Assembly (NCBI GenBank): GCA_030066245.1
Contig: JASJBY010000026.1
Coordinates: 1-38,614, forward strand
DNA from: Gammaproteobacteria bacterium
GTDB lineage: Bacteria; Pseudomonadota; Gammaproteobacteria; JAABTG01
Length of the DNA: 38,614 nt
Direction: 5' to 3'
In this document: in pieces, positions 976 through 16,107 of the stretch
How the letters are laid out: each line of letters begins with the position of its first letter
How positions within the stretch are numbered: the first letter of the stretch is position 1
Program-made: the position numbers and the translations under genes
The notes under the pieces: generated by a model
Told to the model about the DNA's origin: nothing
Database searches by the model: none
The model's input: only the letters and a program-made list of their open reading frames with translations

Positions 976-3786
976 ATGGCCGATCAGAAACCAACAACCC
1001 AGGGCCGGCCGGCACGCGGTCGAGCCGTCGTCGGTCCCTATCTGCGTAAGCTTCTCGTGCCGGTTCTCGGTTTGTTCGGGCTGCTCGCCGTGAACGGCGT
1101 GTATCTGGCCAGCATCACCCTGTTCGAATGGGCAAGCGGGGCGACCTACCAGAACTACTTCTATCAGGTCATGTTCCTGGTCCACCTGGTGCTCGGCCTG
1201 CTGATCATCGTGCCTGTTGTTGTATTTGGCGCAGGGCATCTGCGCAATGCCTGGTCACGACCCAACCGTCCCGCGGTGCGCGCCGGCCTCGCCCTATACA
1301 CCACTGCATTGCTGGTGATCGTGAGCGGCGTGGTCTTGGTCCGTTTCGACTTCTTCGAGATCAAGGATCCCGAGATCCGCGCGGTCGCGTACTGGGTGCA
1401 CGTGGCGGCCCCGCTGCTGGCGGCTTGGCTGTTCGTGCTGCACCGGCTCGCCGGGTCGCGCATCCGGTGGAAGGTCGGCGTAGCCTGGGCGTCCGTCGCC
1501 TTGGCCCTGCCCCTCGTCATGTTGCTGGCGCAACGGCCGGACGCGGGCGGCGATCCGGCTTTGGCGGGCGTCACCGGCGATGCCCAGTTTGCCCCGTCGT
1601 TGTCGCGCACCGCCAGCGGCGGCCTCATTCCGGCCAGGGCGTTGATGATGGACCAGTACTGTCTCCAGTGTCATGCCGACGTGCATGAGCAGTGGTCTCA
1701 CAGCGCCCATCGGTTCAGCTCTTTCAACAATCCGGCCTACCGGTTCTCGGTGAGGGAGGTGCGGGATCTCGATCCCGCGGCGGCGCGTTTCTGCGCCGGC
1801 TGTCACGATCTGGTGCCGCTGTTCAGCGGCGTCCTGGACGACCCCGGATTCGACGACGTCCACGACCCGACCGCAACCGTGGGAATCACGTGCAGCGGCT
1901 GTCACGCCATCAGCCGGGTCAACAGTCCGCGCGGCAACGGCGACTACACCATCGAGGAGCCGGTCCACTATCCCTTTGCCTACAGCGATAATGCGGTGCT
2001 GCAATGGGTGAATCGGCAGCTGGTCAAGGCCAAGCCGGCCTTCCACGAGAAAGTGTTCATGAAGCCGGTTCACCGGGAGGCCGAGTTCTGCAGCGTCTGC
2101 CACAAGGTCTTCCTGCCCGAGGAGGTTAACCAGTACAAATGGCTGAGGGGGCAGAACCACTACGACGCCTACATCCTTTCGGGCGTCTCGGGCCACGGTG
2201 CCACCAGCTTCTACTATCCGCCGCGGGCGGTGCATCGCTGCGCCCAATGCCATATGCCCCTGCAGGCGTCCGCCGACTTCGGTGCCGACTTCTTCGATGG
2301 TTCCGGGGAGCTCAAGGTGCACAACCACCAGTTCCCGGCCGCCAACACGGCGCTGCCCCATCTGCTGGGCCTGCCGGAGGAGGTCAACGACGCCCATCGG
2401 TCTTTCCTGGCCGGCTCGCTGCGGGTGGACATTTTCGGAATCAAGGAAGGGGGCACCATCACCGGCCCGCTGACGGCGCCGCTGGGGCCCCGAGTGCCGG
2501 CTCTGGTCCCGGGTGAGCGTTATCTGCTGGAGACCGTCCTGCGCACCGTCCGGCTGGGGCATGTGTTCACCCAGGGCACGGCCGACTCCAACCAGGTGTG
2601 GCTGGATGTGCGGGTCACCAGCGGTGAAGCCCTGATCGGCAGGAGTGGCGGGCTCGGGGCACAGGGCGAGGTGGATCCCTGGTCTCACTTCGTGAATGCC
2701 TATGTGCTCGACCGAGAGGGCAATCGCATCGACCGGCGCAACGGTCAGGACATTTTCACCACCCTGTACAACCATCAGATCCCGCCGGGTGCGGCCGACG
2801 TGGTCCACTACGCCTTCACGGTCCCGGCACATGTCCGCGCCCCGGTGACCGTGGAGGTGAGCCTGAACTATCGTAAGTTCGACACGCCCTACATGCGTCA
2901 TTTCCAGGGACGCCAATTCGTCACCAACGATCTGCCGGTCACGGTCATTGCCAGGGATCGGATCACTTTTCCGCTGCGGGGCAGCGCGGGACCTGCGTCC
3001 GCCCAGGACACTGCCGTGCCGGCCTGGGAGCGTTGGAACGACTATGGCATTGCCTTGCTGCGCAAAGGCGAGAGGGGCGAGCTGCGTCAGGCTGAACAAG
3101 CGTTCGCGCGGGTGGAGGAACTGGGGCGCGCGGACGGGCCGTTGAACCTGGCGCGGGTCTATCTTCGCGAGGGCCGGCTGGATGACGCCGCGGCGGCCCT
3201 GCGTCGTGCCGCTGCCCACGAGCCGCCGGCGCCGCCCTGGGTGGTGGCCTGGCTGACCGCCCGGATCAACAAGCAGAACGGTTATCTCGACGAGGCCATC
3301 CAGGATCTGAAACGTATCGTTGCGACCGGCTTCGCGGACGCGCAGGCGCGGGAGTTCGACTTCAGCCGGGACTACAGAGTCCTCAACGAGCTGGGACAAA
3401 CCCTGGTGGAACGGGCCAAGCAGGAGCGCGGCAGCAGACGCCGGCAGCAGCGCGAGCAGCTGTTGCGCGAGGCGGCGCAGACTTTCCAGCGGGTGCTGGT
3501 GCTGGATCCGGAAAACGTGACCGCCCATTACAACCTGGCGCTGGTGCACACCTGGCTCGGCGACACCGAGCGCGCCGGGCGCCATCGGTCTCTGCATGGC
3601 AAATATCGCGCCGACGACAATGCCCGGGAGCGGGTGGTGACGCTGCACCGCCGCCGCAACCCGGCTGCCGACCACGCCGCCGAGGCGGTCGTCATCTACG
3701 ATCTGCAGCGCCCGGGAGCATTCGGTCTTTCCGGAAAGCCGCTTGACCTGGCCCTGCTGGGCGGGGCGCAAGCCGGAGAACCCTAG
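976..3786 (+). CDS. membrane-anchored pentaheme c-type cytochrome with C-terminal TPR domain
   Basis: 936-aa ORF. It has five CXXCH motifs: CLQCH, CAGCH, CSGCH, CSVCH and CAQCH. The N-terminal ~190 aa contain about five hydrophobic helices, with His pairs in two of them. The C-terminal ~250 aa are TPR-like (AHYNLALVHTWLGD, ARVYLREGRLDDA). Confidence 0.85.
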   Translation: MADQKPTTQGRPARGRAVVGPYLRKLLVPVLGLFGLLAVNGVYLASITLFEWASGATYQNYFYQVMFLVHLVLGLLIIVPVVVFGAGHLRNAWSRPNRPAVRAGLALYTTALLVIVSGVVLVRFDFFEIKDPEIRAVAYWVHVAAPLLAAWLFVLHRLAGSRIRWKVGVAWASVALALPLVMLLAQRPDAGGDPALAGVTGDAQFAPSLSRTASGGLIPARALMMDQYCLQCHADVHEQWSHSAHRFSSFNNPAYRFSVREVRDLDPAAARFCAGCHDLVPLFSGVLDDPGFDDVHDPTATVGITCSGCHAISRVNSPRGNGDYTIEEPVHYPFAYSDNAVLQWVNRQLVKAKPAFHEKVFMKPVHREAEFCSVCHKVFLPEEVNQYKWLRGQNHYDAYILSGVSGHGATSFYYPPRAVHRCAQCHMPLQASADFGADFFDGSGELKVHNHQFPAANTALPHLLGLPEEVNDAHRSFLAGSLRVDIFGIKEGGTITGPLTAPLGPRVPALVPGERYLLETVLRTVRLGHVFTQGTADSNQVWLDVRVTSGEALIGRSGGLGAQGEVDPWSHFVNAYVLDREGNRIDRRNGQDIFTTLYNHQIPPGAADVVHYAFTVPAHVRAPVTVEVSLNYRKFDTPYMRHFQGRQFVTNDLPVTVIARDRITFPLRGSAGPASAQDTAVPAWERWNDYGIALLRKGERGELRQAEQAFARVEELGRADGPLNLARVYLREGRLDDAAAALRRAAAHEPPAPPWVVAWLTARINKQNGYLDEAIQDLKRIVATGFADAQAREFDFSRDYRVLNELGQTLVERAKQERGSRRRQQREQLLREAAQTFQRVLVLDPENVTAHYNLALVHTWLGDTERAGRHRSLHGKYRADDNARERVVTLHRRRNPAADHAAEAVVIYDLQRPGAFGLSGKPLDLALLGGAQAGEP

Positions 3787-3788
3787 TC

Positions 3789-5639
3789 GTGGCCGCCGGT
3801 CATCCTGGTGACGCCAGCAACAAAGCACCCGACACCGGTGCGGCGGTCATCAGCCGCGCCTTTCGCCGCTCCCTCGCTACCCTTCTCCTCATTGCCCTCG
3901 GCATCGGCCTGATCTTCTACCTCGGCAAGCGCGGCCCGGAGGAGAAGGTCACGCCAGATGAGGCCCCCGTCAGCGTGCCGGCGGAACCCCGCGAGGCGAC
4001 ACCGGAGGTGCCGGTGGTGAGCTTCACGGACGTGTCCCGCGCTGCGGGCGTCGATTTCGTGCACGTCAACGGCGCCTACGGCAAGCGGTTTCTGCCTGAG
4101 ACCATGGGCGGGGGAGTGGCCCTGTTCGACTACGACAACGACGGTGACGCTGATCTGCTGCTGGTGAACTCGGACACCTGGCAGGAAAGACGCCAGGCAG
4201 GCGGCCAGCGTCCCACCATGGCGCTCTATGCCAACGACGGTCGGGGCAACTTCAGCAACGTCACGGCAGCCGCCGGACTTGACATCAGCGCCTACGGCAT
4301 GGGTGTGGCGGCGGGCGATTATGACGGCGACGGCTGGGTCGACCTCTTCATCAGTGCCATGGGCCCGAACCGGCTTCTGCGCAATACGGGCGGCCGCTTC
4401 ACCGATAGCACGGCCGCAGCCGGATTGGCGGGTGACCCCGAGCGCTGGAGCACCAGCAGCGCTTTCTTCGACTACGACAATGACGGGGATCTGGATCTGT
4501 TCGTGGCCAACTACGTCCAGTGGTCCCAGGACATCGATCTGGAGGTGGACTTCCGCCTCACCGGCATAGGCCGGGCTTACGGGCCACCGAAGAGCTACGC
4601 GGGAACCCACTGCTATTTGTATCGCAACGATGGAGACGGCACCTTCAGCGACGTGTCGGCCGAGGCCGGCATCCAGGTGAACAACCCGGCCACCGGCAAG
4701 CCCATGGGGAAAGCCCTGGCGGTCTCGCCCATCGACGCGGACGGCGACGGCTACCTGGACCTGCTGGTGGCCAACGACACGGTGCAGAACTTCTTCTTCT
4801 ACAACCGGGGCGACGGCCGTTTCGAGGAAGTGGGCACTTACTGGGGGCTTGCCTTCGACCGCAACGGTCACGCCACGGGCGCTATGGGAACAGATGCGGC
4901 TTACTACCGGAACAGCGGGGAACTGGGCTTCGTCATCGGCAATTTCGCCAACGAGATGACTTCGCTGTACGTCTCCCAGGGCGATCCCAGCCAGTACGCC
5001 GACGAGTCCATCGTGGACGGCATCGGCCCGGCGAGCCGCCTGAAGCTCTCCTTTGCCGTGTTCTTCTTCGACTACGATCTGGATGGCCGTCTGGATTTGT
5101 TCCAGGCCAACGGCCACGTGGAGAACGAGATCAACGCGGTGCAGGCGAGTCAGCATTACCGCCAGCCGCCGCAGCTGTTCTGGAACTGCGGAGACCAGTG
5201 TCCCGCCACTTTCGTGCCGGTGGACGAGGGTGCCTCCGGGGACCTGGCGCAACCGCTGGCAGGGCGGGGCGCGGCTTACGCCGATCTGGACGGGGATGGG
5301 GATCTGGATCTGGTCATCACCCAGGTGGGCGACGCCCCGGTCGTGCTTCGCAACGACCAGGCGCTCGGCCATCACTGGCTGCGGATCCGGCTCAAGGGGC
5401 GCGGCCCGAACCGGGATGCCATCGGCGCCCGGGTGGAAGTGACCGCGGGGGGGATCACCCGACAGCTTCAGGTGATGCCGACCCGGGGCTATCTCTCCCA
5501 GGTGGAGCTGCCCCTGACCTTTGGGCTGGGCCAGAACGCCGGCGCGGAGCGTGTGCGCATCCAGTGGCCGGATGGGAGCACGGAGACGCATGCGGAAGTT
5601 CCCGTTGACCGAACTGTGGTGTTTGAGCAGCAGGAGTAG
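3789..5639 (+). CDS. CRTAC1-family protein (FG-GAP/VCBS repeats + C-terminal ASPIC/UnbV domain), N-terminal membrane anchor
   Basis: GTG start 2 nt after the cytochrome stop. TM anchor LATLLLIALGIGLIFYL. Repeated FDYDNDGDxDL(L/F)V(A)N calcium-binding-like FG-GAP motifs. The C-terminal segment HWLRIRLKGRGPNRDAIGARVEV...YLSQVELPLTFGLG is typical of ASPIC/UnbV. Confidence 0.85.
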   Translation: MAAGHPGDASNKAPDTGAAVISRAFRRSLATLLLIALGIGLIFYLGKRGPEEKVTPDEAPVSVPAEPREATPEVPVVSFTDVSRAAGVDFVHVNGAYGKRFLPETMGGGVALFDYDNDGDADLLLVNSDTWQERRQAGGQRPTMALYANDGRGNFSNVTAAAGLDISAYGMGVAAGDYDGDGWVDLFISAMGPNRLLRNTGGRFTDSTAAAGLAGDPERWSTSSAFFDYDNDGDLDLFVANYVQWSQDIDLEVDFRLTGIGRAYGPPKSYAGTHCYLYRNDGDGTFSDVSAEAGIQVNNPATGKPMGKALAVSPIDADGDGYLDLLVANDTVQNFFFYNRGDGRFEEVGTYWGLAFDRNGHATGAMGTDAAYYRNSGELGFVIGNFANEMTSLYVSQGDPSQYADESIVDGIGPASRLKLSFAVFFFDYDLDGRLDLFQANGHVENEINAVQASQHYRQPPQLFWNCGDQCPATFVPVDEGASGDLAQPLAGRGAAYADLDGDGDLDLVITQVGDAPVVLRNDQALGHHWLRIRLKGRGPNRDAIGARVEVTAGGITRQLQVMPTRGYLSQVELPLTFGLGQNAGAERVRIQWPDGSTETHAEVPVDRTVVFEQQE

Positions 5640-5723
5640 GCCAGGCGATTATCAGACGAGTGTGTGTGGTGCAGCGCCAAGGGGTAGTGCCAAGAATCTT
5701 GCTCATTATCTCTGAGGCAGTGC

Positions 5724-6533
5724 TCACGCAGTTGGGTCAGCACCGCCGGACAACCCGAAGAAGACGCGGGCGGTCTCGGTGGTCCAGCCTGCCACGTATT
5801 CGCGTTCGTAGCCCAGCGCATCGCTGACCGCCTCCAGCACGGCGGGCAGGAACGCCGGCTCGTTGCGCCTGTCCTTGGGGCGGGGCGTCAGGTTGCGGGG
5901 CAGTATGTAAGGGGCGTCGGTCTCCAGCATGAGACGGTCGGCGGGGATCTGGGCTATCAGATCCCGCAGGTGCAGCCCGCGGCGCTCGTCACAGATCCAG
6001 CCCGTGATCCCCACATGAAGATCCAGATCGCGGCAGGCGGCCAGCTCGTCGCGATCGCCGGTGAAACAGTGCAGGACGGCCCTGGGCAGACGGTCGCGGT
6101 AGCGTTCCAGCAGGGGGAAGAATCGCCGCCGGGCGTCCCGCTGGTGCAGGAAGACGGGCATGGCCCGGTCACAGGCGAGCTCCAGCTGGGCTTCGAAGGC
6201 CCGCTCCTGGTCCGGTCGGGGGCTGTAGTCCCGATAGAAGTCCAGCCCCGTCTCCCCCAGGGCGACCACCTCCGGAGTGGCGGCCAGCTCCGCCAGCCGG
6301 CTGCCCGTGGCGTTGGTCCATTGCTTCGCGTCGTGGGGATGCACACCGGCGGTGCTGGCGAGCACCCCGGGGTGGCGGCTCGCCAACGCCTGGGCTGCCT
6401 GACTTGCCTGCAGGTCGGTGCCGGTGACCACCATCTGCACCACGCCTGCCTCTGCGGCGCGCTCCATCACCGCCGGCAGATCCCGGCGGAAGGACGAGTG
6501 GGTCAGGTTAGCCCCGATGTCAATGAGCTCCAC
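5724..6533 (-). CDS. tatD: TatD-family metal-dependent hydrolase/DNase
   Basis: ELIDIGANLTHSSF resembles the E. coli TatD N-terminus (MFDIGVNLTSSQF, from memory). It is followed by typical TatD His/Asp/Glu-containing blocks (GVHPH, FLHQRDA, ETDAPY). I trimmed the start to the GTG at 6533. The 401-aa track ORF extends upstream only because no stop codon occurs there. Confidence 0.8.
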   Translation of the reverse strand: MELIDIGANLTHSSFRRDLPAVMERAAEAGVVQMVVTGTDLQASQAAQALASRHPGVLASTAGVHPHDAKQWTNATGSRLAELAATPEVVALGETGLDFYRDYSPRPDQERAFEAQLELACDRAMPVFLHQRDARRRFFPLLERYRDRLPRAVLHCFTGDRDELAACRDLDLHVGITGWICDERRGLHLRDLIAQIPADRLMLETDAPYILPRNLTPRPKDRRNEPAFLPAVLEAVSDALGYEREYVAGWTTETARVFFGLSGGADPTA

Positions 6534-6672
6534 GGCCTTGTTCCCGTTGGCAGGAAGCCGGATTCTACCCGGCGACGGGCGACTTTGCCCGGAGTGCTGA
6601 CCCAGGTCATTTCCGGTTCCGGTGGATGGTCCTAGAGTGGTAATCGAACCGGTGCGGGCGGAGAAAACAAAC

Positions 6673-7065
6673 ATGAGCTTGGACCATCCCCAGATCGCCG
6701 AGCTGAAGGCGCACCTGCAGGAGCGCTTCGAGGCACTGCGTGAAGCGGTCAGGCAGGAGCTGCTGCAAAGTGACCGCGAGCAGTACGTGGCCCTCGCGGG
6801 CGAGGTGGCGGACCCCGGGGACGCGTCCATGGCGGACCTGCTGGCGGACCTCAATCTGGCCGTCATCGATAACCACATCAACGAGATCCAGGCCGTGGAG
6901 CAGGCGTTGATGCGGATGGCCTCGGGCACCTACGGGCTGTGCGCCGATTGCGAGGAGCCCATCGACCCGGCACGCCTCCAGACCCAGCCCGCGGCGAAAC
7001 GTTGCGTCCACTGTCAGACGCGTCACGAGCAGGCAACGACGCCGGCGGCCCGTGTGTCCCTGTGA
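6673..7065 (+). CDS. DksA/TraR-family C4 zinc-finger protein
   Basis: Coiled-coil N-terminal part followed by a CADCEEPI...RCVHCQ (CxxC-N17-CxxC) zinc finger. Start placed at the ATG at 6673 (MSLDHPQ), which is preceded by GGAG. Confidence 0.8.
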   Translation: MSLDHPQIAELKAHLQERFEALREAVRQELLQSDREQYVALAGEVADPGDASMADLLADLNLAVIDNHINEIQAVEQALMRMASGTYGLCADCEEPIDPARLQTQPAAKRCVHCQTRHEQATTPAARVSL

Positions 7066-7199
7066 AAGCCTGGCGGGCCGCCGGGGGCCTTCCTGCCGGC
7101 AGCTGGAGCAAGCCCCTAGGTGGACGGTCGCGACAGCGCTGACCCGGCATCCCTACTGCTAAACTGACAAGTCTTGATCTCGCAGCGGAGACCGGGCTG

Positions 7200-8312
7200 T
7201 TGCAGGTAGGCGTCCCTAAGGAAACCAAAGACCGTGAGAACCGCGTGGCGCTGACCCCGGACGGCGCCGCCGCCCTGGTGCGGGCCGGACACAGGGTGCT
7301 GGTGGAGCACGGGGCGGGGCTCGGCTCCGGCTTCTCCGACGAGCAGTTCCGGGCGGCGGGAGCGGAGACCGTCCACCGTGAACGCGCCTGGGGTGCAGGC
7401 TTGGTGGTCAAGGTCAAGGAGCCCCAGCCCGGCGAGTACCCGTGCCTCGCGGATCAGATCCTGTTCACTTATCTGCACCTCTCCGGCTCGCCGGCGGCAT
7501 TGACGGCCGCCCTGCAGCGGGCAGGCACCACGGCGGTGGCCTACGAGACCGTGGAGGACGCCCAGGGGCGGCTGCCCCTGCTCGCCCCCATGAGCGCCGT
7601 CGCCGGCAACATGGCGGCCACTATGGGGGCGTACTATCTGGCGCGCTTCAACCAGGGCAAGGGCGTGCTGCTGGGCCAGGTGCTGGGCCGCGCCCACGGC
7701 AAGGTCCTGGTGGTCGGCGATGGCGTCGTGGGCCGGCATGCCGCCCGGTCGGCGGCCGGCATGGGTGCGCAAGTTTTCCTCTGCGGTCGCCACCCGGAGC
7801 GCGCCCCCGAGCTGAAGCGAAGCATCTCCCCCGATCTCCAGTTCGTGGCGTCCACGCCGGAGCACATCGGCCGTCACGTGCAGGACGCGGATCTGGTGGT
7901 CGGTGGCGTGTTGCGGCGGGGCGCCCGGGCCCCCCACGTGGTCAGCGAGGCCATGGTGAGCCGCATGCAGCCCGGTTCCGTCATCGTGGACGTGAGCATC
8001 GACCAGGGCGGCTGCGTGGAGACCTCCCGGCCCACCTCGCACTCGGAGCCGGTCTACCTCAGCCACGGGGTGATCCACTACTGCGTCACCAACATGCCGG
8101 GCGCCTATCCGCGCACGTCCACCCTGGCCCTGACGGACGCCACCCTGGGTCATGTCTTGCGGCTGGCGGCCGAGGGCGTGGCCGCCTTTCGCCGGGACGC
8201 CGGGTTTGCCAGGGGCGTGAACGTCCACCAGGGCCGCATCACCTGCGAGGCGGTGGCCCGGGACCTGGACATGAGCGAGGACTACCGGGCCTTCTCCAGC
8301 CTTCCGGCCTGA
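7200..8312 (+). CDS. ald: alanine dehydrogenase
   Basis: GVPKETKDRENRVALTP N-terminus, a Rossmann motif VLVVGDGVVGRHAARSAAGMGAQV, and a length of 370 aa. The start is a TTG at 7200. Confidence 0.9.
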   Translation: MQVGVPKETKDRENRVALTPDGAAALVRAGHRVLVEHGAGLGSGFSDEQFRAAGAETVHRERAWGAGLVVKVKEPQPGEYPCLADQILFTYLHLSGSPAALTAALQRAGTTAVAYETVEDAQGRLPLLAPMSAVAGNMAATMGAYYLARFNQGKGVLLGQVLGRAHGKVLVVGDGVVGRHAARSAAGMGAQVFLCGRHPERAPELKRSISPDLQFVASTPEHIGRHVQDADLVVGGVLRRGARAPHVVSEAMVSRMQPGSVIVDVSIDQGGCVETSRPTSHSEPVYLSHGVIHYCVTNMPGAYPRTSTLALTDATLGHVLRLAAEGVAAFRRDAGFARGVNVHQGRITCEAVARDLDMSEDYRAFSSLPA

Positions 8313-8516
8313 AAGACCTGGGTGAGCCTGGCTTGAGTTCCACTCTCAGCGATGGGGCGGCGGATGCCCGCCGGGGTGCCCGCCGCGGACGCTTGACCTG
8401 CCCGAACGGGCTTCCCGGGCGCTGTCGGAAGGCGAATTCCCGAAACGGTAAAATAAGCGCTGTGGGGGCGCATGCGGTCTGGCCGCGGGCGCTGCCCCTA
8501 CCAGGAGGCTGTCCCA

Positions 8517-10277
8517 ATGTTGACCCTGCTAACCCGCCGCAATCCCCATGGGCACGCTGCTTCAATACTTGGCCGGGTCCTCGCGGCCATGGGCCTTTCT
8601 GCGCTCTCTGCGGCGGCGGTGGCTGACGGCTATTTCTCCGACCAAGCCGAAGCGTCCGGCGTCGATTTCGTGCAGTTCAACGGCATGTCCGGCGAGTTCT
8701 ACATGATCGAGAATCTGGGCGGCGGCGGCGCCCTGTTCGACTACGACAACGACGGGGATCTGGACATCTATCTGGTTCAAGGCGCAATGCTCGGCCCGAA
8801 GGCCCTGTCCGAGGCCCTGTTTCCACCCCAGCCCGGCAAGCCCCTCACGGACCGGCTGTATCGCAACGACCTGTCGGTGGCACGGGACGGCACGCCCAGG
8901 CCCCGTTTCGTGGACGTCACGGAGGCCAGCGGGATCCGCTCCGCAGGCTACGGCATGGGCGTGACGGTCGGAGACTATGACAACGACGGCTGGGTCGACG
9001 TCTACGTAAACAACTACGGCAGGAACCAGCTGTGGCGCAACAACGGGAACGGCACTTTCTCCGAGGTTACCGACCAGGCGGGCGTGGGCGAGGAGCGGCT
9101 CAGTGTGAGCTCAGCCTTCGTGGACTATGACCGTGACGGTGATCTGGATCTCTTCGTCAGCAACTACGTTTACTTCGATCCCGAGGAGAATCGGGAATGT
9201 AGTGCGCCGGACGGATCCCGCGACTACTGCTCGCCCCGGGCCTACGAGCCAGCACCGGACCGGCTCTACGCGAACCGGGGAGACGGGACTTTCGAGGACG
9301 TCACCGCCAAGTCCGGCATCGCGCGCGCGTTTGGCACTGGGCTCGGCGTGGTGGTGGCTGACTTCAACGGTGACGCCTGGCCCGACATTTACGTGGCGAA
9401 TGACGGCATGGCCAACCAGCTGTGGCGCAACCAGAAGGACGGCACCTTCGTGGATGACGGGCTGCTCTCGGGCACGGCGGTGAACATGGAAGGCGCCGCC
9501 GAGGCCAGCATGGGCGTGGACGCCGTGGACGTGGACGGTGACGGGGATGAGGATCTGTTCATGACCCATCTGCTGGGGGAGACCAACACCATCTACATCA
9601 ACGACGGGGAGGGCTGGTTCGAGGACCGGACCATGGCAACGGGCCTGGCGGCGCCGAGCAAAGGATATACCTCCTTCGGCACGGCCTGGTTCGACTACAA
9701 CAACGACGGCTGGCTGGATCTCTATATCGCCAACGGCGGGGTGAACAACTTTCTCTCGCTGGTGCTGCAAAACGATCCCTATCCCCTCCATCAGACCAAC
9801 CAGCTGTTCGTGAACCTGGGCGAAGGGCAGTTTAAGGAAGTCACCAAAGCGGCCGGCAAGGTCTTCAAGCTCTCCGAGGTGAGCCGTGGCGTCGCCTGCG
9901 GCGATGTGGACAGCGACGGGGATGCGGATCTGCTGGTGGTCAACAACAACGGTCGGGCGCGCCTGCTGGTCAACCAGGAGGGGAACAGGCGGCACTGGCT
10001 GGGTCTGCGCCTGCTGGACGCGCGCGGACGGGATGCGCTCGGCGCCCGGGTGCGGGTGGAGCGGCCCAAGCAGCGGCCCCTCTGGCGCCGGGCACGCGCC
10101 GACGGCAGCTATGCCTCCGCCAACGACCCGCGGGTGCTGGTCGGCCTGGGCGACTCGGCGGCCTTGGGGCCGGTCCGGGTTTACTGGCCCAGCGGCCTGG
10201 TGGAGCAGTGGTCCGGGTTGCAGGCGGACCGTTACACGACTCTGCGTGAGGGCGAAGGTCAGGAGGTCAAGTCATGA
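8517..10277 (+). CDS. CRTAC1-family protein (FG-GAP/VCBS repeats + ASPIC/UnbV domain), secreted
   Basis: Paralogue of 3789-5639. It has the same FDYDNDGDLD repeat blocks and a C-terminal HWLGLRLLDARGRDALGARVRV...VLVGLG UnbV-like segment. Signal peptide LAAMGLSALSAAAVADG. Start placed at the ATG at 8517, downstream of AGGAGG. Confidence 0.85.
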   Translation: MLTLLTRRNPHGHAASILGRVLAAMGLSALSAAAVADGYFSDQAEASGVDFVQFNGMSGEFYMIENLGGGGALFDYDNDGDLDIYLVQGAMLGPKALSEALFPPQPGKPLTDRLYRNDLSVARDGTPRPRFVDVTEASGIRSAGYGMGVTVGDYDNDGWVDVYVNNYGRNQLWRNNGNGTFSEVTDQAGVGEERLSVSSAFVDYDRDGDLDLFVSNYVYFDPEENRECSAPDGSRDYCSPRAYEPAPDRLYANRGDGTFEDVTAKSGIARAFGTGLGVVVADFNGDAWPDIYVANDGMANQLWRNQKDGTFVDDGLLSGTAVNMEGAAEASMGVDAVDVDGDGDEDLFMTHLLGETNTIYINDGEGWFEDRTMATGLAAPSKGYTSFGTAWFDYNNDGWLDLYIANGGVNNFLSLVLQNDPYPLHQTNQLFVNLGEGQFKEVTKAAGKVFKLSEVSRGVACGDVDSDGDADLLVVNNNGRARLLVNQEGNRRHWLGLRLLDARGRDALGARVRVERPKQRPLWRRARADGSYASANDPRVLVGLGDSAALGPVRVYWPSGLVEQWSGLQADRYTTLREGEGQEVKS

Positions 10278-12046
10278 TCAGCCTTCCAGGATCCGATGCC
10301 CGGCGTCCTGCCGGGTCGCCGCGGTGTTCGCAGGTCCGGGGCTCAGGGCTCGCGCGCCTGCGGCGTGCTGCGCTGCCGGGGCCGGCTCTTCTGCTGGGCT
10401 GGGCCATCATTGCCTGGGCCCAGGACGCCGACACCCTGGCCGCGCCCCTTTCGTGGGAGGGGGGCGGCCAGACCTACAAGCTGGTCGCTGTCCCCGCGCC
10501 GCTGCTCGAAGGCCGGGAGCCTGCCATGCAGCAGGCCCTGGGCAGTCTGCGCCGGGAGCTGGCGGCCCTGGTGCGGAAGCCGGGCGTCAAGCCCGTGGAG
10601 CTGGGGGAGGCGTTCGGGCACATGGGCCGCCACTACCATGCCCACCATCTGTACGGCGCTGCGGCTGGCTGCTACACCAATGCGGAAACCCTGGAGCCGG
10701 GGGTCTTTCGATGGCCCTATCTGCTGGGCTACGCCTACTACCAGGCCAGCCATCCGCACAAGGCGGTGGCCGCCTACCGGAGAGCGTTGGCGATCCAGCC
10801 GGGGGACGCGGCCGCCCAGCTGAGACTGGCCGCCGTCTACCTGGAGCTGAATCAGCCGGCCGTGGCCGAGCCGTTGCTCGAGCGGCCCCTGGAGCAGGAC
10901 GGCCTGCGCGAGGCCGCCGCCTTCCTCAAGGGCAAGGCGGCCCTGGCGCGACGTGACTACGAGAACGCGGTTCGCTATCTGGAAGCGGCGCTGGCGGAAG
11001 GTCCCCAGGCAACCAAAGCGCACTACCCCCTGGCCATGGCCTACCGGGGGCTTGGCGATGTGGACAGCGCCCGCCGCCATCTGAAGCTTCTCGGCGAGGG
11101 CGAACCCCGGGTCGTGGATCCGCTGGTGGATGAGTTGGGTACGTTTCTCACCGGGGCGCGCACTCACTATTTCCGGGCCATCGAGGCGGTGCGCGACGGC
11201 CACTACGACGAGGCCGTCTACGGGTTCACCGAAGCGCTCGCCCAGGATCCGGACAATGTCAACGCGCGCGTGAGTCTGGCCCGATCCCTGTACCTGGCGG
11301 GCGACCGGGAAGGGGGCCATGAGCAGTTGGCCGATGCCCTGCGCCGTCAGCCGGACCATCTGCTCGGCAATTTTCTCATGGGCGTCCTGCTGGATGAGCA
11401 GGGTCAGCCGGGCAAGGCGGCCGAGCACTACCAGGTGACGCTGGCCCAGGATCCCGAGCACGCCGGCGCCCATTACTATCTGGCCACCGTGTTGCTGGGT
11501 CAGGGTGAGTTTGCCCGGGCTGCCGAGCACTACGCGGCGGCCTGGCGGCTGGAGCCGAGGCTGGCGTCGGCCCGTATGCTGGAAGCCATGGCCCTGCTGG
11601 AAGCGGGTGCGCCCCACACGACGGTGCGCGCTCGACTCGATCAGGCTGTGAGCGCCTACCCGGACGAGACCATGGTGGTGCTCCCCTTGGCGCGCCTGCT
11701 CGCGACCAGTCCCGATGCCCAGGTGCGGGACGGCGCGCGGGCCTTGACCCTGGGGGAAGGGCTGTTCGAGGCGTCGCCCCGGCTGGAGAACGCGGAGACC
11801 CTCGCCATGGCGTACGCGGCCCTGGGGCGCTACGAGGACGCGGTCGCCTGGCAGGAGAGCGCCATCTCGGCCACAGCGGCAGCCGGACAGTTCTTTCAGC
11901 TGCCGCGGCTGGAAGATGCCCTCAGCCGCTACCAGGACCGCGAGAGGCTGCCCACGTCCGTGGCGTTGAATGCCAGCATGCTCCGGCCTCCGCCCGCGCG
12001 GGCCCTGGGTCCCTTTCGCGAGTATCCGACCCTGTCCGCCTACTGA
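10274..12046 (+). CDS. TPR-repeat protein, exported
   Basis: Its ATG overlaps the upstream stop (ATGA). A hydrophobic N-terminal segment ALLLGWAIIAWAQD follows an RLRR stretch. The protein carries many TPR-like units (AHYPLAMAYRGLGD, AHYYLATVLLGQGE). Confidence 0.8.
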   Translation: MISLPGSDARRPAGSPRCSQVRGSGLARLRRAALPGPALLLGWAIIAWAQDADTLAAPLSWEGGGQTYKLVAVPAPLLEGREPAMQQALGSLRRELAALVRKPGVKPVELGEAFGHMGRHYHAHHLYGAAAGCYTNAETLEPGVFRWPYLLGYAYYQASHPHKAVAAYRRALAIQPGDAAAQLRLAAVYLELNQPAVAEPLLERPLEQDGLREAAAFLKGKAALARRDYENAVRYLEAALAEGPQATKAHYPLAMAYRGLGDVDSARRHLKLLGEGEPRVVDPLVDELGTFLTGARTHYFRAIEAVRDGHYDEAVYGFTEALAQDPDNVNARVSLARSLYLAGDREGGHEQLADALRRQPDHLLGNFLMGVLLDEQGQPGKAAEHYQVTLAQDPEHAGAHYYLATVLLGQGEFARAAEHYAAAWRLEPRLASARMLEAMALLEAGAPHTTVRARLDQAVSAYPDETMVVLPLARLLATSPDAQVRDGARALTLGEGLFEASPRLENAETLAMAYAALGRYEDAVAWQESAISATAAAGQFFQLPRLEDALSRYQDRERLPTSVALNASMLRPPPARALGPFREYPTLSAY

Positions 12047-12176
12047 GGTGGGCGACAGGCGTGCAGGCCGGCGTGCCATCGGAAGCCTGTCCGGGGGTCA
12101 GGCGGGCCGGCAGCGACCTTTTTGCGGCAGTAACTAATCAGAGCGAGGAGCGCCGCAAGCAGCGGCCTGCAACACC

Positions 12177-15100
12177 ATGACTGAATTCCGGCACATGCTT
12201 TACCCGCTGGGTTTCCTGTTTCTGGTGGCCTGCTCCGGGCCTGCGGACGACCAGCAAAACGCGGCGGGCTCGACTCCGCCTGCCAGCGGCCCTGACGACA
12301 GGGCCATTGGCCTGAACAATCGCGGTGTCGGGCTGATGGGACGCTTCGAGTACGAGCCCGCGCGGCAGGCGTTCGCGAGCCTGGTGGAACAGTATCCCGA
12401 ATGGGCCGACGCGGACGTCAATTTGGCCATCGCGACCCTGAACCGGCAGGAAGAGGGGGACGAGCAGGCGGCTCTGGCTCGCGTGGATCAGGTCCTCGAG
12501 AGGGAGCCCGACCACCTGCGGGCCCATTACGTGGCCGGCCTGCTTAGGCTCTATCTGTCCTCACCCGCCGAGGCGCTGGTGCACTTCCGTCAGGTGGCGG
12601 AAGCCGATCCCGAGGATGCCTACGCGGCCTACTATCTGGCCCAGTGCCTCGCCCAGGAGTCCCAGTACCAGGAGGCCCTTGGTTGGTACCGGCGCGCCAT
12701 GGCCCTGGATCCCTACCTGCGCAGCGCCTACTACGGCGCATTCCAGAGCCTGCGTCGCCTGCGTCAGGCCAACGAGGCTCGCGCGGTCATCGCCGATTAC
12801 CAGAAGCTTGCCAACAATCCCCGGGCGCGCCTGGCGGAGTTCAAGTACACGCGCATGGGACCCAAGGGCGAGGCCCTAGCCATCGCCCCTTCGGAACCGC
12901 GCCCGAGCATCCCTCACCCGGCGGGGCCGCTGTTCGCCAAACCCCGGGTTATCGCTCGCGCCGACACCGCGGAGGAGCAGGGGGGAAGCCGGTTCAGCCT
13001 CACCGCTGCGGATATGCAGGGTGACGGGGCGCTGGATATTCTGGTGACCGGCGTCGGCGGGGCGACGCCCAACCTGCTGCTGCACGGCCAGCCGGATGGC
13101 AGCTACCAGGTGGATGCCGCGCACCCGCTCGCCGCTGTGCCGGATGTGAACGCCGCCCTGTGGGGTGATTTCGACAATGACGGCCTGACGGATGTGTATC
13201 TGTGCCGGGCGGGGACCAATCAGCTGTGGCGCCAGACCGAGCCCGGCAGCTGGCTGGACGTGACGGCTGCCACGGGGACGGGCGGCGGCGAGCGTGACAC
13301 GGTGGACGGGGTTTTCTTCGATGCCGACCACGACGGCGATCTGGACCTGTTCCTGGTGAACGCGGACGGTCCCAACGAGCTGCTCAACAACAACCTGGAC
13401 GGCAGCTTTCGTGCACTGGGCGCCGAGTTCGGGGTGGCCGGGGACGGCCGGGCCTCGCGGCTCGCGATCCCCGTGGACATCGATGGGGACCGGGATGTAG
13501 ACCTGGTGGTGGTCAACGGGGAGCCGCCCCACGAGGTGTATTTGAATGACCGCCTGTGGCAGTACACACCGGCGAAGGGCTTCCGGGCCTTTCGGGACGC
13601 CCCCGTACACACGGCATTGGCCGCGGATGTGGATGCCGACGGCGTGCCGGAGCTCTACGCGGTTAGCCCGGACGGGAAGATCTACCGGTGGTCGGAGCCC
13701 GCTGCCGATCATTCCGACGCCGAGCCGTTGCTGACGCTGCCGGGTGCAGGGGAGTCGCCGCCGGGCCTCGCCGCCATGGACGTGAACGGCGACGGCCGCC
13801 TGGAGCTTATCGCCAGTGCCGGGAACGGCTGGGCCGTTGTCGATGCCGACGCGGGTCGGAGCCGAGCCCACCACCGGGCGGCGCTCGGGGGCAGGCGGCT
13901 GCGCGGCTGGTCTCCGGTCGTGGTCCAGCCGCAGGCCGGACCTTCAGTGCTGGGGCTGGCGGCTGACGGGACTCTCCACCTCTGGGGGCCGGGGCGCGGG
14001 CGCCACAGGTTCGTGAGCCTGGTCTTCACCGGTGCTGAGGATGCCGGCCAGTCCATGCGCTCCAACGCCTCGGGCATCGGCACCCGGATGGCCCTGCGGG
14101 TGGGCGACCGGTGGACCCTAACCGACACGCTGCGCAGCTTCGCGGGGCCTGGTCAGTCCCTGCAGCCCGTGGCCATTGGCCTGGGCGGCGCGGCGAAGGC
14201 GGACTTCGTGGCCATCGACTGGTCGGACGGTGTGTTCCAGAGCGAGCTGGATCTCGGTCCCGACCAGGTGCATCGCATCGCCGAGACCCAGCGGCAGCTC
14301 TCCAGCTGCCCCGTGCTATTCGCCTGGGACGGCGATCGCTATGCCTTCGTCAGCGATCTGCTGGGTGTGGGTGGGCTGGGTTATGCGGTGGGACCGGGCG
14401 AGTACGCCACCCCGCGCCCCTGGGAAAACCTGCTCCTGCCGCCCGGGCTCCTGAAGCCCAGGGAAGGCCGGATGCTGGTGAAGCTCACGGAGCCCATGGA
14501 AGAAGCCGTCTATATCGATGCGGTGCGACTGGTGAGCTACGATCTGCCGCCCGGTTGGGAGCTGGTGCTGGACGAACGCATGGGGATCCAGGGGCCGCCG
14601 CCCACCGGCGAGCCGCGTTTCTTTCGCCACGAAATACTGGCGATGCGAGCCACCAATGACCGCGGCCAGGAGGTCACGGCGACAGTGCGTGACGCAGATG
14701 GCGAGGCGGCCCCCGTGGGCGCCCGGGACAGGCGCTTCGTGGGACGCCTGGAACGGGAGCACCTGCTCACCCTGCGCTTTGAAGAGCCCCTGGACCAGCG
14801 TCCCGGACAGCCCTTGCTGGTGGCCGACGGCTGGGTGGAGTACCCCTATTCCCAGACCATGTTCGCCGCCTGGCAGGCGGGTGCCGGCTACCAGGCGCCG
14901 AGCCTGGAGGCACGCGGCGCCGACGGCCGCTGGCACAGGCTCCTGGAACAGTTCGGCTATCCGGCCGGCATGCCCCGGCGCATGTCCGTGCCCCTGGACG
15001 GGTTGCCGGCCGGTACCCGGGAGATCCGCCTGCGTACCAACCAGGAAATCTACTGGGACCGCCTGGCCGTGGCCTACGCCGAGCCGGCGCCCCGGATACG

Positions 15101-15527
15101 CCGCGAGGTGCTGAGTCTGGCGTCGGCGCGTCTGGCCAAGACCGGCTTTCCCCTGCGCCTGACCCGTGACCAGCACCGGCCGGATTACGACTACGGGCAC
15201 CGCCGCCCGTTCTGGGACACCCGCTACATGGCCGGCCTGTACACGCGCCTGGGCGACGTGAAGGAGCTGGTGGCGCGCCACGACGATGGCGTCGCCGTGT
15301 TCGGGGCCGGGGAGGAGGTGCATATGGCCTTTGCCGCGCCTTCCGCACCCGCTCCGCAGGGCTGGCGCCGCTACTTCGTCCTGGAGACCAACGGCTGGAC
15401 CAAGGACATGGATCTTTTCACCCAGCACGGCGAAACGGTGGGTCCGCTACCCACTACCGGCAAGCCCCCCGGCCCCCGCGACGCCCTGCATGCCCGCTAC
15501 AACACGCGCTGGCTGGCGGGGCGGTGA
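12177..15527 (+). CDS. large lipoprotein: TPR + FG-GAP/VCBS repeats + ASPIC/UnbV-like segment + unrecognised ~400-aa C-terminal domain
   Basis: Lipobox FLFLVACSG. TPR units in the first ~230 aa. FG-GAP-like blocks (GDFDNDGLTDVYL, FDADHDGDLDLFLVN, DIDGDRDVDLVVVN, DVNGDGRLELI). UnbV-like segment GIGTRMALRVGDRW...VAIGLG. I cannot name the remaining C-terminal part. Confidence 0.85.
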   Translation: MTEFRHMLYPLGFLFLVACSGPADDQQNAAGSTPPASGPDDRAIGLNNRGVGLMGRFEYEPARQAFASLVEQYPEWADADVNLAIATLNRQEEGDEQAALARVDQVLEREPDHLRAHYVAGLLRLYLSSPAEALVHFRQVAEADPEDAYAAYYLAQCLAQESQYQEALGWYRRAMALDPYLRSAYYGAFQSLRRLRQANEARAVIADYQKLANNPRARLAEFKYTRMGPKGEALAIAPSEPRPSIPHPAGPLFAKPRVIARADTAEEQGGSRFSLTAADMQGDGALDILVTGVGGATPNLLLHGQPDGSYQVDAAHPLAAVPDVNAALWGDFDNDGLTDVYLCRAGTNQLWRQTEPGSWLDVTAATGTGGGERDTVDGVFFDADHDGDLDLFLVNADGPNELLNNNLDGSFRALGAEFGVAGDGRASRLAIPVDIDGDRDVDLVVVNGEPPHEVYLNDRLWQYTPAKGFRAFRDAPVHTALAADVDADGVPELYAVSPDGKIYRWSEPAADHSDAEPLLTLPGAGESPPGLAAMDVNGDGRLELIASAGNGWAVVDADAGRSRAHHRAALGGRRLRGWSPVVVQPQAGPSVLGLAADGTLHLWGPGRGRHRFVSLVFTGAEDAGQSMRSNASGIGTRMALRVGDRWTLTDTLRSFAGPGQSLQPVAIGLGGAAKADFVAIDWSDGVFQSELDLGPDQVHRIAETQRQLSSCPVLFAWDGDRYAFVSDLLGVGGLGYAVGPGEYATPRPWENLLLPPGLLKPREGRMLVKLTEPMEEAVYIDAVRLVSYDLPPGWELVLDERMGIQGPPPTGEPRFFRHEILAMRATNDRGQEVTATVRDADGEAAPVGARDRRFVGRLEREHLLTLRFEEPLDQRPGQPLLVADGWVEYPYSQTMFAAWQAGAGYQAPSLEARGADGRWHRLLEQFGYPAGMPRRMSVPLDGLPAGTREIRLRTNQEIYWDRLAVAYAEPAPRIRREVLSLASARLAKTGFPLRLTRDQHRPDYDYGHRRPFWDTRYMAGLYTRLGDVKELVARHDDGVAVFGAGEEVHMAFAAPSAPAPQGWRRYFVLETNGWTKDMDLFTQHGETVGPLPTTGKPPGPRDALHARYNTRWLAGR

Positions 15528-15535
15528 AGACCTCA

Positions 15536-15566
15536 CAAAGAAAAAGGGGTGACTTCCGTCACCCCT
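15536..15566 (-). terminator. rho-independent terminator for the Gly/Trp/Tyr-rich protein gene; may act in both directions
   Basis: Perfect 9-bp stem AGGGGTGAC/GTCACCCCT with a 4-nt loop at 15545-15566. On the minus strand it is followed by TTTTTCTTT. A second GC hairpin sits at 15579-15601 (CTCCCCGCC/GGCGGGGAG). Confidence 0.65.
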
Positions 15567-15616
15567 GTTCCATGCGCTCTCCCCGCCATCCTGGCGGGGA
15601 GTCAGACCAGGGTCTG

Positions 15617-15925
15617 CTACTTCTTCGCCGTGGCCGGCTGCTGTACGATCACCGGAGCGGTCATGGCGTACGGATAGCCGTAGCCACCCCAGCCGGGATA
15701 GCCGCCCCAGCCATAGCCGGGATAGCCGCCCCAGCCGTAGCCAGGATAGCCGCCCCAGCCGTACGGGCCGCCCCAGCCCCAGGGGCCGCCGCCCCAGCCG
15801 TAGCCGCCCCAGCCATAGCCGCCCCACCAGGGGCCGCCACCGAAGAAGGCATTGGCGCTCTGCAGGGGCAGAAGCGCAGAGCCTGCCACCACAGCCGCCG
15901 CCAGGATTACCGAGATCTTCTTCAT
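15617..15925 (-). CDS. small secreted Gly/Trp/Tyr-rich repeat protein, sulfur-globule-protein-like
   Basis: 102 aa. Signal peptide MKKISVILAAAVVAGSALLPLQSANA. The mature part consists almost entirely of G, W, Y and P, with GWGGYPGY repeated three times. RBS AAGGGAGAG upstream and a terminator downstream. Confidence 0.75.
   Translation of the reverse strand: MKKISVILAAAVVAGSALLPLQSANAFFGGGPWWGGYGWGGYGWGGGPWGWGGPYGWGGYPGYGWGGYPGYGWGGYPGWGGYGYPYAMTAPVIVQQPATAKK
15695..15766. repeat. 3 x 24-nt tandem repeat inside the CDS, encoding GWGGYPGY
   Basis: The three units are GGGATAGCCGCCCCAGCCATAGCC, GGGATAGCCGCCCCAGCCGTAGCC and AGGATAGCCGCCCCAGCCGTACGG, read directly from the + strand. Confidence 0.9.
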
Positions 15926-16004
15926 CGGGTTCTCTCCCTTTGCTCGTGCATTAACGGTTGAGAGTTATTGATGTTGTTTCGCCGGGCAACCCCGGCACTT
16001 ACAG

Positions 16005-16010: not shown

Positions 16011-16107
16011 ACCAATTACTCATATACCGATGCAACCGATCCAGATCAATAAACCGTCACATATGCGCCCAGCGTCCCGCCGTGCAAGCCGGCGTCGTCG
16101 AGCCGCG

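Follow-up and report, generated by a model that had tools for sequence, protein, structure and literature searches.

A conserved gene pair for a multihaem cytochrome-TPR protein and a CRTAC1-type protein: a candidate redox-linked membrane module in bacteria

The window analyzed here is a whole contig of 38,614 nucleotides (JASJBY010000026.1; 38.6 kb, 65% G+C) from a gammaproteobacterial metagenome-assembled genome (MAG). It carries five genes for proteins exported from the cytoplasm or anchored in the membrane: a cytochrome fused to tetratricopeptide repeats (TPRs), hereafter called the cytochrome; crtA and crtB, which code for two CRTAC1-type proteins; tprD, which codes for a TPR protein; and a gene for a lipoprotein that joins both kinds of domain in one chain (Table 1). 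An earlier note on this DNA had described these five same-strand reading frames and their domains, and had proposed that they form a periplasmic electron-transfer module. All five are present on the plus strand, and a Pfam scan reproduced the domain assignments. By comparing the locus with its relatives in other genomes, we found that the cytochrome and crtA are neighbours in at least seven phyla, and this pair is the main subject of the present analysis.

Table 1. Genes of the locus, in window coordinates, with the basis of each assignment
Gene	Coordinates	Strand	Basis
Cytochrome-TPR fusion gene, 936 aa	976..3786	+	Pfam, CXXCH count, AlphaFold2 model, homologue conservation
crtA, membrane-anchored CRTAC1-type protein, 616 aa	3789..5639	+	Pfam, PDB 9etn match, orthologue neighbourhood
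TatD-family hydrolase gene (tatD), 5' end approximate	5724..6524	-	Pfam TatD_DNase E 4e-65, long-ORF residues 136-392
Alanine dehydrogenase gene (ald)	7200..8312	+	Pfam AlaDh_PNT_C E 2.8e-70, AlaDh_PNT_N E 5.5e-42
crtB, secreted CRTAC1 paralogue, 586 aa	8517..10277	+	Pfam, Shine-Dalgarno site, BLASTP vs crtA
tprD, secreted TPR protein, 590 aa	10274..12046	+	Pfam TPR families, overlap read in sequence
TPR/FG-GAP/UnbV lipoprotein gene, 1116 aa	12177..15527	+	Pfam, lipobox, AlphaFold2 of C-terminal domain
(aa, amino acids; ORF, open reading frame)

The two junctions that had been called translationally coupled can be read directly in the sequence: the cytochrome gene and crtA meet at TAG-tc-GTG (3784-3791), and crtB and tprD overlap in an ATGA (10274-10277) with an AGGAGG-like site upstream. 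The start of crtB at 8517, as originally proposed, is favoured over a longer ORF from 8472 because an AGGAGG precedes the ATG at 8517. Pfam identified the two genes that separate the halves of the cluster, tatD on the minus strand and ald, and the description of the cluster as split therefore holds. All five genes stand in a single same-strand array without tatD and ald in the related loci L012 and L031, and they are also clustered, in a differing order, in the relatives L011 and L049. Since the five genes are contiguous in some relatives, the tatD-ald segment interrupts an otherwise compact cluster here, and tatD and ald are outside the module.

The pairing of the cytochrome with crtA was followed across genomes starting from either gene. 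A first set, with the cytochrome as seed, comprised 80 genome loci, of which 71 extend 1.2 kb or more downstream of the cytochrome gene. In 63 of these 71 loci, tblastn places a crtA orthologue (53-64% identity) immediately after the cytochrome gene and on the same strand; two further loci (L031 and L067) have crtA about 2.2-2.3 kb away, and one has it divergently upstream. The roughly 2.2 kb inserted in L031 and L067 means that the pair can be interrupted, like the tatD/ald split in the window. In a second set of 68 loci, seeded from a Planctomycetota cytochrome, crtA is directly downstream in 54 and divergently upstream in two, and no CRTAC1 gene is found within 3 kb in 12. These twelve loci (L099, L112, L123, L124, L128, L143, L147, L148, L151, L153, L156 and L159) belong to Verrucomicrobiota and to one Planctomycetaceae group; directly upstream of the cytochrome in L143 there is a gene for a 281-aa protein with the look, by eye, of an NHL/SMP-30-type propeller.

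The reciprocal search, seeded with crtA, was divided into orthologue-level loci (at least 50% identity, 17 loci) and paralogue-level loci (less than 50%, 63 loci). The cytochrome lies directly upstream in 16 of the 17 orthologue-level CRTAC1 loci, and any cytochrome at all is present in only five of the 63 paralogue-level loci, where the cytochromes are divergent. These reciprocal counts, together with the 63 of 71 loci of the first set, rule out chance adjacency. The association also extends to distant relatives of the cytochrome: when the haem and beta-sandwich fragment has only 34-36% identity, a gene for an FG-GAP/UnbV protein is adjacent in four of four informative loci (a fifth contig was too short and was left out of the count), with overlapping junctions in three of the four and with the order TPR, CRTAC1, cytochrome in two. 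Furthermore, the two genes are co-inherited, the pairwise identities of the cytochrome and of crtA being correlated (r = 0.54, Mantel p = 0.001). Clustering of the flanking ORFs returned three recurring families, CRTAC1 (59 loci), the 1100-aa lipoprotein (16 loci) and TPR proteins (8 loci), and no other neighbour family that recurs across lineages; the remaining recurrent neighbours are lineage-specific or artefacts of antisense ORFs (sulfatases, a LytS/LytTR pair, PAP2/haloperoxidase-like and porin-like proteins). The earlier note had suggested looking for enriched co-occurrence of these families in other genomes, and both seed sets and the reciprocal counts show it. Of the functional module that it proposed, the cytochrome-CRTAC1 pair is what these results bear out, conserved as it is across phyla, in both search directions and at low identity. 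Because the two genes are adjacent in so many phyla, it is almost certain that their products act together, and the comparison of sequences strongly supports the view that the cytochrome and one CRTAC1 protein form a functional module.

The loci come from Gammaproteobacteria (Woeseiaceae, Thiotrichales, Chromatiales), Planctomycetota, Verrucomicrobiota, Acidobacteriota, Gemmatimonadota, Methylomirabilota, Binatia and one Acidimicrobiia MAG. Cultured strains that possess the pair include Rhodopirellula europaea 6C, R. maiorica SM1, Novipirellula sp. SH528, Allorhodopirellula solitaria CA85 and Maioricimonas sp. JC845. Unlikely organisms are named in the record titles of six loci (L041, L054, L070, L147, L151 and L159: Bifidobacterium, Bifidobacteriaceae, Akkermansia muciniphila and Candidatus Kuenenia stuttgartiensis); these are probably mis-binned or mislabelled MAG contigs, because they resemble Planctomycetota or Verrucomicrobiota loci.

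The cytochrome is composed of a membrane domain (residues ~21-185), a pentahaem c domain (~215-460), a beta-sandwich (~482-665), a TPR region (~683-901) and a conserved C-terminal tail. It contains exactly five CXXCH motifs, at residues 229, 273, 306, 372 and 422. Pfam matches the haem region to PF13435 (Cytochrome_C554; 26.5 bits, cut-off 20.8), as it does in 25 of 25 homologues, and also matches the C-terminal TPR; models for MtrC domains II/IV, c7 and NrfB-like proteins match the haem region with scores below their cut-offs, and the resemblance is to electron-transfer multihaem families only. The nearest known systems for the c haems are the pentahaem c552 of Thermochromatium tepidum (PDB 5ze8) and haem packing of the c554/NrfB type. 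No solved structure other than 5ze8 gave a significant profile match, and this one is weak (E 1.5e-4) and confined to haems 1-3; the similarity covers about 100 residues, whereas the membrane domain, the context of haems 4 and 5, the beta-sandwich and the TPR have no counterpart in that structure.

None of the five CXXCH motifs varies among the homologues, whether close or distant, in an alignment that reaches down to about 30% overall identity. Exactly five further histidines are invariant or nearly so throughout the family (H245, H357, H451, H529 and H571), and two of these sit in the beta-sandwich. Because exactly five extra conserved histidines accompany the five CXXCH motifs, five bis-His c haems are feasible, and this conservation fits five electron-transfer haems partly ligated by the beta-sandwich. 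No CXXCK motif for a lysine-ligated active-site haem (the NrfA criterion) is present, all five motifs being CXXCH, and this together with enough conserved histidines for bis-His ligation rules out an NrfA-like catalytic haem. The c-haem domain should face the periplasm, since the CXXCH motifs lie after five transmembrane helices and the N-terminus is inside.

The beta-sandwich between the haems and the TPR, which had escaped the first reading of the sequence, is conserved and confidently modelled by AlphaFold2, and it has no match in Pfam or NCBIfam. The AlphaFold2 model of the full protein has a predicted local distance difference test (pLDDT) score of 75; a Foldseek search with it was dominated by TPR matches and returned nothing informative on the haem, beta-sandwich and membrane parts. 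The family is large. The best 120 of more than 6000 homologues have 60-98% identity over the whole length and come from Gammaproteobacteria, Planctomycetota, Acidobacteriota and others. When the haem and beta-sandwich fragment was searched against 1.8 billion cluster representatives, it matched 586 clusters at E < 1e-30 and 1541 at E < 1e-10, which sets the family size, at the stricter threshold, at no fewer than 586 clusters at 50% identity. Full-length homologues are mostly of about 900 aa, with the haem domain starting at about residue 200, and their genes are currently annotated as 'tetratricopeptide repeat protein', 'multiheme c-type cytochrome' or, wrongly, 'aspartate phosphatase'.

What had been taken for a membrane anchor is a five-helix domain (AlphaFold2 helices 21-54, 61-92, 98-121, 132-159 and 166-185), a feature that the earlier note had missed. 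Four conserved histidines lie on two of the helices at matched depths, His70 and His88 on helix 2 and His142 and His156 on helix 4, and wherever the membrane domain is present in the distant alignment they are kept, even in members of only about 30% identity. Cytochrome b, FdnI and NarI show the classical form of such a pattern, in which four histidines on transmembrane helices are the ligands of two b haems that together span the membrane. From the histidine pattern and the topology, the membrane domain is likely a dihaem cytochrome b, and one homologue carries the IMG annotation 'cytochrome b561'. His70 and His142 would be near the periplasmic face and His88 and His156 near the cytoplasmic face, as follows from the positive charge of the N-terminus and from the periplasmic position that the c haems must have. 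A transmembrane haem pair is sensible only if electrons cross the membrane, and its presence would therefore speak for genuine electron flow rather than a mere anchoring role. The suggestion of the earlier note that the system is quinol-linked is thus in part sustained: the four histidines at paired depths make it plausible, but the domain matches no known family of cytochromes b or quinol dehydrogenases. The cytochrome also has a conserved loop predicted to be cytoplasmic, RPNRRAVR (residues 95-102).

The crtA protein begins with a conserved cytoplasmic motif, followed by a transmembrane helix (~28-46), an FG-GAP propeller and a UnbV_ASPIC domain. Pfam detected FG-GAP_3 in crtA (E 2.7e-36), crtB (E 2.1e-50) and the lipoprotein (E 1.4e-27), with five to six repeats in each of crtA and crtB; calcium loops of the DxDxDG type number six in crtA, six in crtB and four in the lipoprotein. 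The UnbV_ASPIC domain was found with E values of 8.4e-21 in crtA and 1.8e-14 in crtB, and the PF07593 scores are 74.1 bits for crtA, 53.8 for crtB and 23.9 for the lipoprotein, the last barely above the cut-off of 23.4. The crtA and crtB proteins are 37% identical over 558 residues (BLASTP), and two of the three, used as phmmer queries, matched the structure of human CRTAC1 (PDB 9etn; crtA E 3.9e-18, lipoprotein E 4.5e-8). No EGF (epidermal growth factor) family is among the Pfam matches that would correspond to the C-terminal EGF-like domain of vertebrate CRTAC1; its absence leaves the bacterial family name, as used by NCBI, intact because the EGF feature is animal-specific. By these sequence matches, all three propellers, those of crtA, of crtB and of the lipoprotein, genuinely belong to the CRTAC1/ASPIC-UnbV family.

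Two features set crtA apart from its paralogues. The N-terminal motif IG.A.RWS followed by the transmembrane helix is kept in 49 of 50 orthologues, and the crtA subfamily has about 20 invariant polar or aromatic residues that are missing from both crtB and the propeller of the lipoprotein, among them W131, W220, W245, R262, K308, H443, E445, R566, Y568 and E573. We conclude that crtA is a specialised CRTAC1 subfamily and the conserved partner of the cytochrome. A fuller form of the cytoplasmic motif, DD.IIG.AFRWS, precedes the transmembrane helix (window 3789-3930) in the orthologues of loci L001-L080, and it may contact the RPNRRAVR loop of the cytochrome.

The other three proteins are of the same general kind. 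The crtB protein has a cleavable signal peptide and no transmembrane anchor, and its gene lies beside tprD homologues in L011, L012, L031, L043, L049 and L060. The lipoprotein has a signal ending LFLVAC-SG, with the lipobox L-V-A-C and with 'ACS' kept in the consensus of 21 homologues, and is made of TPRs (~45-215), an FG-GAP propeller with UnbV (~260-700) and a 410-aa all-beta C-terminal domain that the earlier note had not mentioned. This last domain (window 14277-15524) has no Pfam or NCBIfam match; AlphaFold2 modelled it with a pLDDT of 73.5 as all-beta, with jelly-roll-like domains, and Foldseek gave no convincing match, only weak hits to viral jelly-rolls, carbohydrate-binding module (CBM) family CBM32 and F5/8-type-C domains with TM-scores of at most ~0.2 on the query. 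On the basis of the model, we treat these 410 residues as probable beta-sandwiches of no assigned family. They are highly conserved, with the motifs QLSSCPVLFAWDG, DGWVEYPYSQT, FGYPAGMPRRMS and GWTKDMD. Of the 80 loci of the first set, 16 have a lipoprotein homologue no more than 10 kb from the cytochrome. Overall, crtB-tprD pairs and the lipoprotein are that close in about one fifth of loci, which belong not only to Gammaproteobacteria but also to Planctomycetota and Gemmatimonadota. In none of crtB, tprD and the lipoprotein did we find a haem motif or a conserved Cys/His cluster; nothing therefore supports the electron path that had been extended to these three proteins, and a trans-envelope electron conduit running through them is ruled out.

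TPR and CRTAC1 parts go together in three ways, as one fused chain in the lipoprotein, as translationally coupled genes in crtB-tprD and as neighbours in cytochrome-crtA, so that the recurring TPR and CRTAC1 vocabulary first noticed in this window is real. By the domain-fusion argument, the occurrence of the two as fused, coupled or adjacent units suggests that the TPR domain is most likely a binding partner of the CRTAC1 propeller. A TPR gene was also found near 32 of the 63 CRTAC1 loci without a cytochrome, often directly upstream on the same strand, a count for which there is no background rate for comparison. Such loci fall within L185-L245 (for example L191, L203, L206, L208, L210, L213, L220, L229 and L244) and most of them belong to Acidobacteriota, some to Poribacteria and Chthonomonadales. 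The two-gene TPR and CRTAC1 cassette may be a general unit.

Rfam and tRNA scans of the window gave no matches, and a scan for promoters and terminators was at background level. A perfect GC-rich hairpin with a 9-bp stem, AGGGGTGAC-nnnn-GTCACCCCT, lies at 15545-15566, 18 nt past the stop codon of the lipoprotein gene, and has a run of T on the minus strand; possibly the cluster ends here, with this hairpin as its terminator. The stretch 15528-16475 (~900 bp) after the lipoprotein gene contains no recognisable gene. Just downstream of the cluster, at 16475-24766 on the minus strand, Pfam identified a complete operon for a V/A-type ATPase (D, B, A, E, F, c/K, I and C/AC39); Gammaproteobacteria, the group to which this MAG is assigned, normally have F-type ATPases. 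At 25378-28074, also on the minus strand, an 898-aa protein with the GGDEF motif RLGGDEFIVIL and an EAL-type C-terminal region (recognized by eye) is encoded, which from these motifs is probably a cyclic-di-GMP turnover protein and which is not linked to the module in other genomes. A 343-aa ORF at 30135-31166 on the plus strand has a signal-peptide-like start, a long low-complexity region rich in Pro, Ala and Gly and no Pfam match; it encodes a disordered, secreted protein unless it is a spurious high-GC ORF.

Among known systems, the architecture of the cytochrome appears closest to b/c fusion cytochromes such as CbcL. CbcL of Geobacter sulfurreducens is an inner-membrane b/c fusion with nine c haems and a presumed link between the quinone pool and the periplasm, and the cytochrome has in common with it a multi-helix membrane domain, putatively with two b haems, and a periplasmic multihaem c region in one polypeptide. 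It differs in having five c haems instead of nine, in its beta-sandwich, its TPR and its obligate CRTAC1 partner, and in a membrane domain that matches neither the HydC/FdnI model (PF01292) nor any other cytochrome b model; the module is, moreover, found mainly in taxa not known for metal respiration. The likeness to FdnI, HyaC, CybB and NarI consists of four conserved histidines on two transmembrane helices at two depths, which would imply transmembrane electron transfer to a quinone site on the cytoplasmic side. There is, however, no detectable sequence relationship, and the models PF01292, PF02665, cytochrome b561 and ferric reductase-like are unmatched; the domain has five helices, its histidine pairs are 18 and 14 residues apart, and it is fused to the c domain instead of forming a separate subunit.

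On the CRTAC1 side, human CRTAC1 is a secreted, non-enzymatic binding protein, and we know of no redox partner for it. The three bacterial proteins have the calcium-binding FG-GAP propeller and UnbV_ASPIC domain in common with vertebrate CRTAC1 (9etn); they do not have its EGF-like domain, and crtA adds the N-terminal transmembrane anchor and the residues specific to its subfamily. An analogy can also be drawn with the quinohaemoprotein dehydrogenases, in which a calcium-containing pyrroloquinoline quinone (PQQ) beta-propeller passes electrons via c haems to the quinone pool, but the FG-GAP propeller type and the cytochrome architecture are unrelated to theirs, and Pfam gave no PQQ-propeller match (PF01011/PF13360) in crtA. 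A second, independent case of a CRTAC1-family gene among multihaem c cytochromes has been reported: in Planctomycetota, Opitutus terrae (Verrucomicrobiota), Paludibaculum and Syntrophobacter, such a gene is flanked by uncharacterised hydrazine-synthase-like multihaem c genes, some with c554 domains (PMC12758564). Those clusters differ from the present one in encoding homologues of hydrazine synthase alpha and beta-gamma, in having no membrane b domain and no TPR fusion, and in their gene order. That is the only paper we found in the searchable literature that ties a 'CRTAC1 family protein' gene to haem-c proteins, and no description of the cytochrome-TPR and CRTAC1 module was found there. The Tenderiales electron-uptake cluster, also met in the literature, is unrelated to the module.

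We propose that the cytochrome and crtA form a two-protein complex in the inner membrane, with a transmembrane b/c electron path, a TPR that docks crtA, and redox chemistry at or near the propeller, a proposal to which we give slightly less than an even chance. The cytochrome would move electrons across the membrane into the periplasm. Its two b haems, between helices 2 and 4, would be bound by His70/His142 on the periplasmic side and His88/His156 on the cytoplasmic side, and would link a quinone/quinol site on the cytoplasmic side to the chain of five bis-His c haems, part of which may pack against the conserved beta-sandwich. The C-terminal TPR would dock crtA, a predicted calcium-binding propeller of the seven-blade FG-GAP type with UnbV that is held in the same membrane by its own transmembrane helix, and would so place the propeller beside the end of the haem chain. 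The redox chemistry would take place at or beside this propeller, on some substrate or bound cofactor. FdnI and HyaC feed the quinone pool, and PhsC and MsrQ draw electrons from quinol. By analogy with dihaem b anchors of the FdnI/HyaC type, we slightly favour a periplasmic oxidation that feeds the quinone pool, the other direction being a quinol-driven periplasmic reduction, as with PhsC or MsrQ. The crtB-tprD pair and the TPR-CRTAC1 lipoprotein would be haem-free accessory units of the same TPR-plus-propeller kind. The domains, the conserved residues and the adjacency and co-inheritance of the genes are observed; the binding of b haems, bis-His ligation, docking of the propeller by the TPR, coupling to quinone and the place of the chemistry belong to the proposal. 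A more specific form of it, which has a fair chance but is less likely than not, is that the CRTAC1 propeller is the catalytic or substrate-binding subunit of a new type of periplasmic enzyme linked to the respiratory chain, wired to the quinone pool and perhaps provided with a bound or protein-derived cofactor.

Several observations weigh against this proposed complex. About 10-20% of the cytochrome loci have no CRTAC1 gene within 3-10 kb. The membrane region (residues 1-215) has no Pfam match even at E values up to 10 and none in NCBIfam, and no b-type, quinol dehydrogenase or quinone-binding family is among the 25 Pfam families listed as matched by most of 25 homologues; in the haem region, the confidence of the AlphaFold2 model is moderate only (pLDDT 40-70). 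The crtA orthologues show no conserved Cys/His cluster, no haem motif and no recognisable cofactor site, and so no redox site can be recognized on crtA. Electron transfer is consequently plausible for the cytochrome and unsupported for the propellers, at which electrons had originally been supposed to be delivered or collected. Finally, most CRTAC1 paralogues have no cytochrome nearby; redox coupling is therefore not general to the CRTAC1 family, and the idea that a redox partner is a general CRTAC1 trait gives way to one in which a single subfamily is linked to a cytochrome.

Some of these observations would be explained if the cytochrome were a general outlet or inlet for respiratory-chain electrons, comparable to CbcL, ImcH and CymA, that exchanges electrons with soluble carriers or substrates while the CRTAC1 protein has only a structural or localising role. 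The haem domain does resemble electron-transfer families only, all its haems can be bis-His, crtA has no visible redox site, and certain cytochrome loci have no adjacent CRTAC1 gene. However, the very tight pairing with one specialised CRTAC1 subfamily, at 53-64% identity across phyla, and the many subfamily-specific invariant polar residues of crtA exceed what a passive scaffold would lead one to expect; the taxa, too, are mostly heterotrophs that live in soil, sediment and water, and nothing in the gene neighbourhoods points to metal respiration. We regard this explanation as rather unlikely. Neither do we think it probable, and here our estimate is lower, that the locus encodes a structural or sensory assembly of the envelope, with TPR-propeller units as a network for binding proteins or ligands and the haems as a redox sensor or gate. 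Such an assembly would agree with the presence of three TPR-propeller units at three predicted localisations (inner membrane, periplasm, lipoprotein), with the nature of TPRs and calcium-binding FG-GAP propellers as classical interaction domains, with the jelly-roll, CBM-like beta domains at the end of the lipoprotein, with the non-enzymatic binding role of human CRTAC1 and with the wide occurrence of TPR and CRTAC1 cassettes without a cytochrome. Seven haems, including a membrane-spanning pair, are nevertheless costly for a sensor; there is no signalling output domain, and no regulatory gene recurs beside the pair across lineages, the LytS/LytTR pair being confined to six Verrucomicrobiota loci; and only about one fifth of the loci have the accessory genes within 10 kb.

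Two further explanations give crtA an activity of another kind. In fungi, the cytochrome domains of cellobiose dehydrogenase and of PQQ-dehydrogenase supply electrons for oxidative polysaccharide cleavage, and the propellers might likewise be calcium-dependent glycan lyases or binders for which the cytochrome supplies electrons in an oxidative step. The module is frequent in Planctomycetota, Verrucomicrobiota and Acidobacteriota, which are known glycan degraders, and sulfatase genes adjoin seven planctomycete loci; the C-terminal beta domains of the lipoprotein weakly resemble CBMs, and the invariant residues of crtA are rich in Trp, Tyr, Arg, Asn, Glu and His, as sugar-binding sites are. Yet Pfam detected no CAZy-type domain, no conserved linkage to transporters or glycoside hydrolases was observed, the Foldseek matches are weak (TM-scores up to ~0.2 on the query) and the sulfatase linkage is lineage-specific, all of which makes a glycan-directed role quite improbable. 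MauG is a dihaem enzyme that acts on methylamine dehydrogenase, and the cytochrome might mature crtA in a similar manner, oxidising Trp, Tyr or Lys to a protein-derived quinone cofactor or cross-link so that the propeller becomes the enzyme. The several subfamily-specific invariant Trp and Tyr residues and Lys308 of the crtA orthologues would suit this role, as would the report that hydrazine-synthase-like haem-c proteins with features of the cytochrome c peroxidase (CCP)/MauG type also flank a CRTAC1-family gene (PMC12758564). The five c haems, however, appear to be six-coordinate and bis-His, unlike the catalytic haem of peroxidases and MauG, and a one-off maturation needs no membrane-spanning pair of b haems; we judge such a role to be very improbable.

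The module is widespread, highly conserved and uncharacterised, and probably represents a form of membrane b/c cytochrome system. CRTAC1/UnbV proteins are abundant in bacteria of soil, sediment and sea and are conserved up to humans, and, in agreement with the earlier note, no function for the bacterial proteins is to be found in the searchable literature. One CRTAC1 subfamily is almost always encoded together with a predicted seven-haem membrane protein (55-69% identity across phyla), which makes a redox-linked membrane complex a testable hypothesis, and the cytochrome-crtA pairing thus offers a first testable handle on the role of CRTAC1 in bacteria. Given the size of the cytochrome family, and because no curated family covers its membrane domain or its beta-sandwich, present annotation may be overlooking a branch of respiratory or envelope redox biology. 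If the CRTAC1 propeller is indeed the catalytic or substrate-binding subunit of an enzyme, this would be the first biochemical function for the CRTAC1/ASPIC-UnbV superfamily, from bacteria to humans, and the cytochrome would represent a new family of membrane cytochromes b, that of the b/c-haem-TPR fusion proteins.

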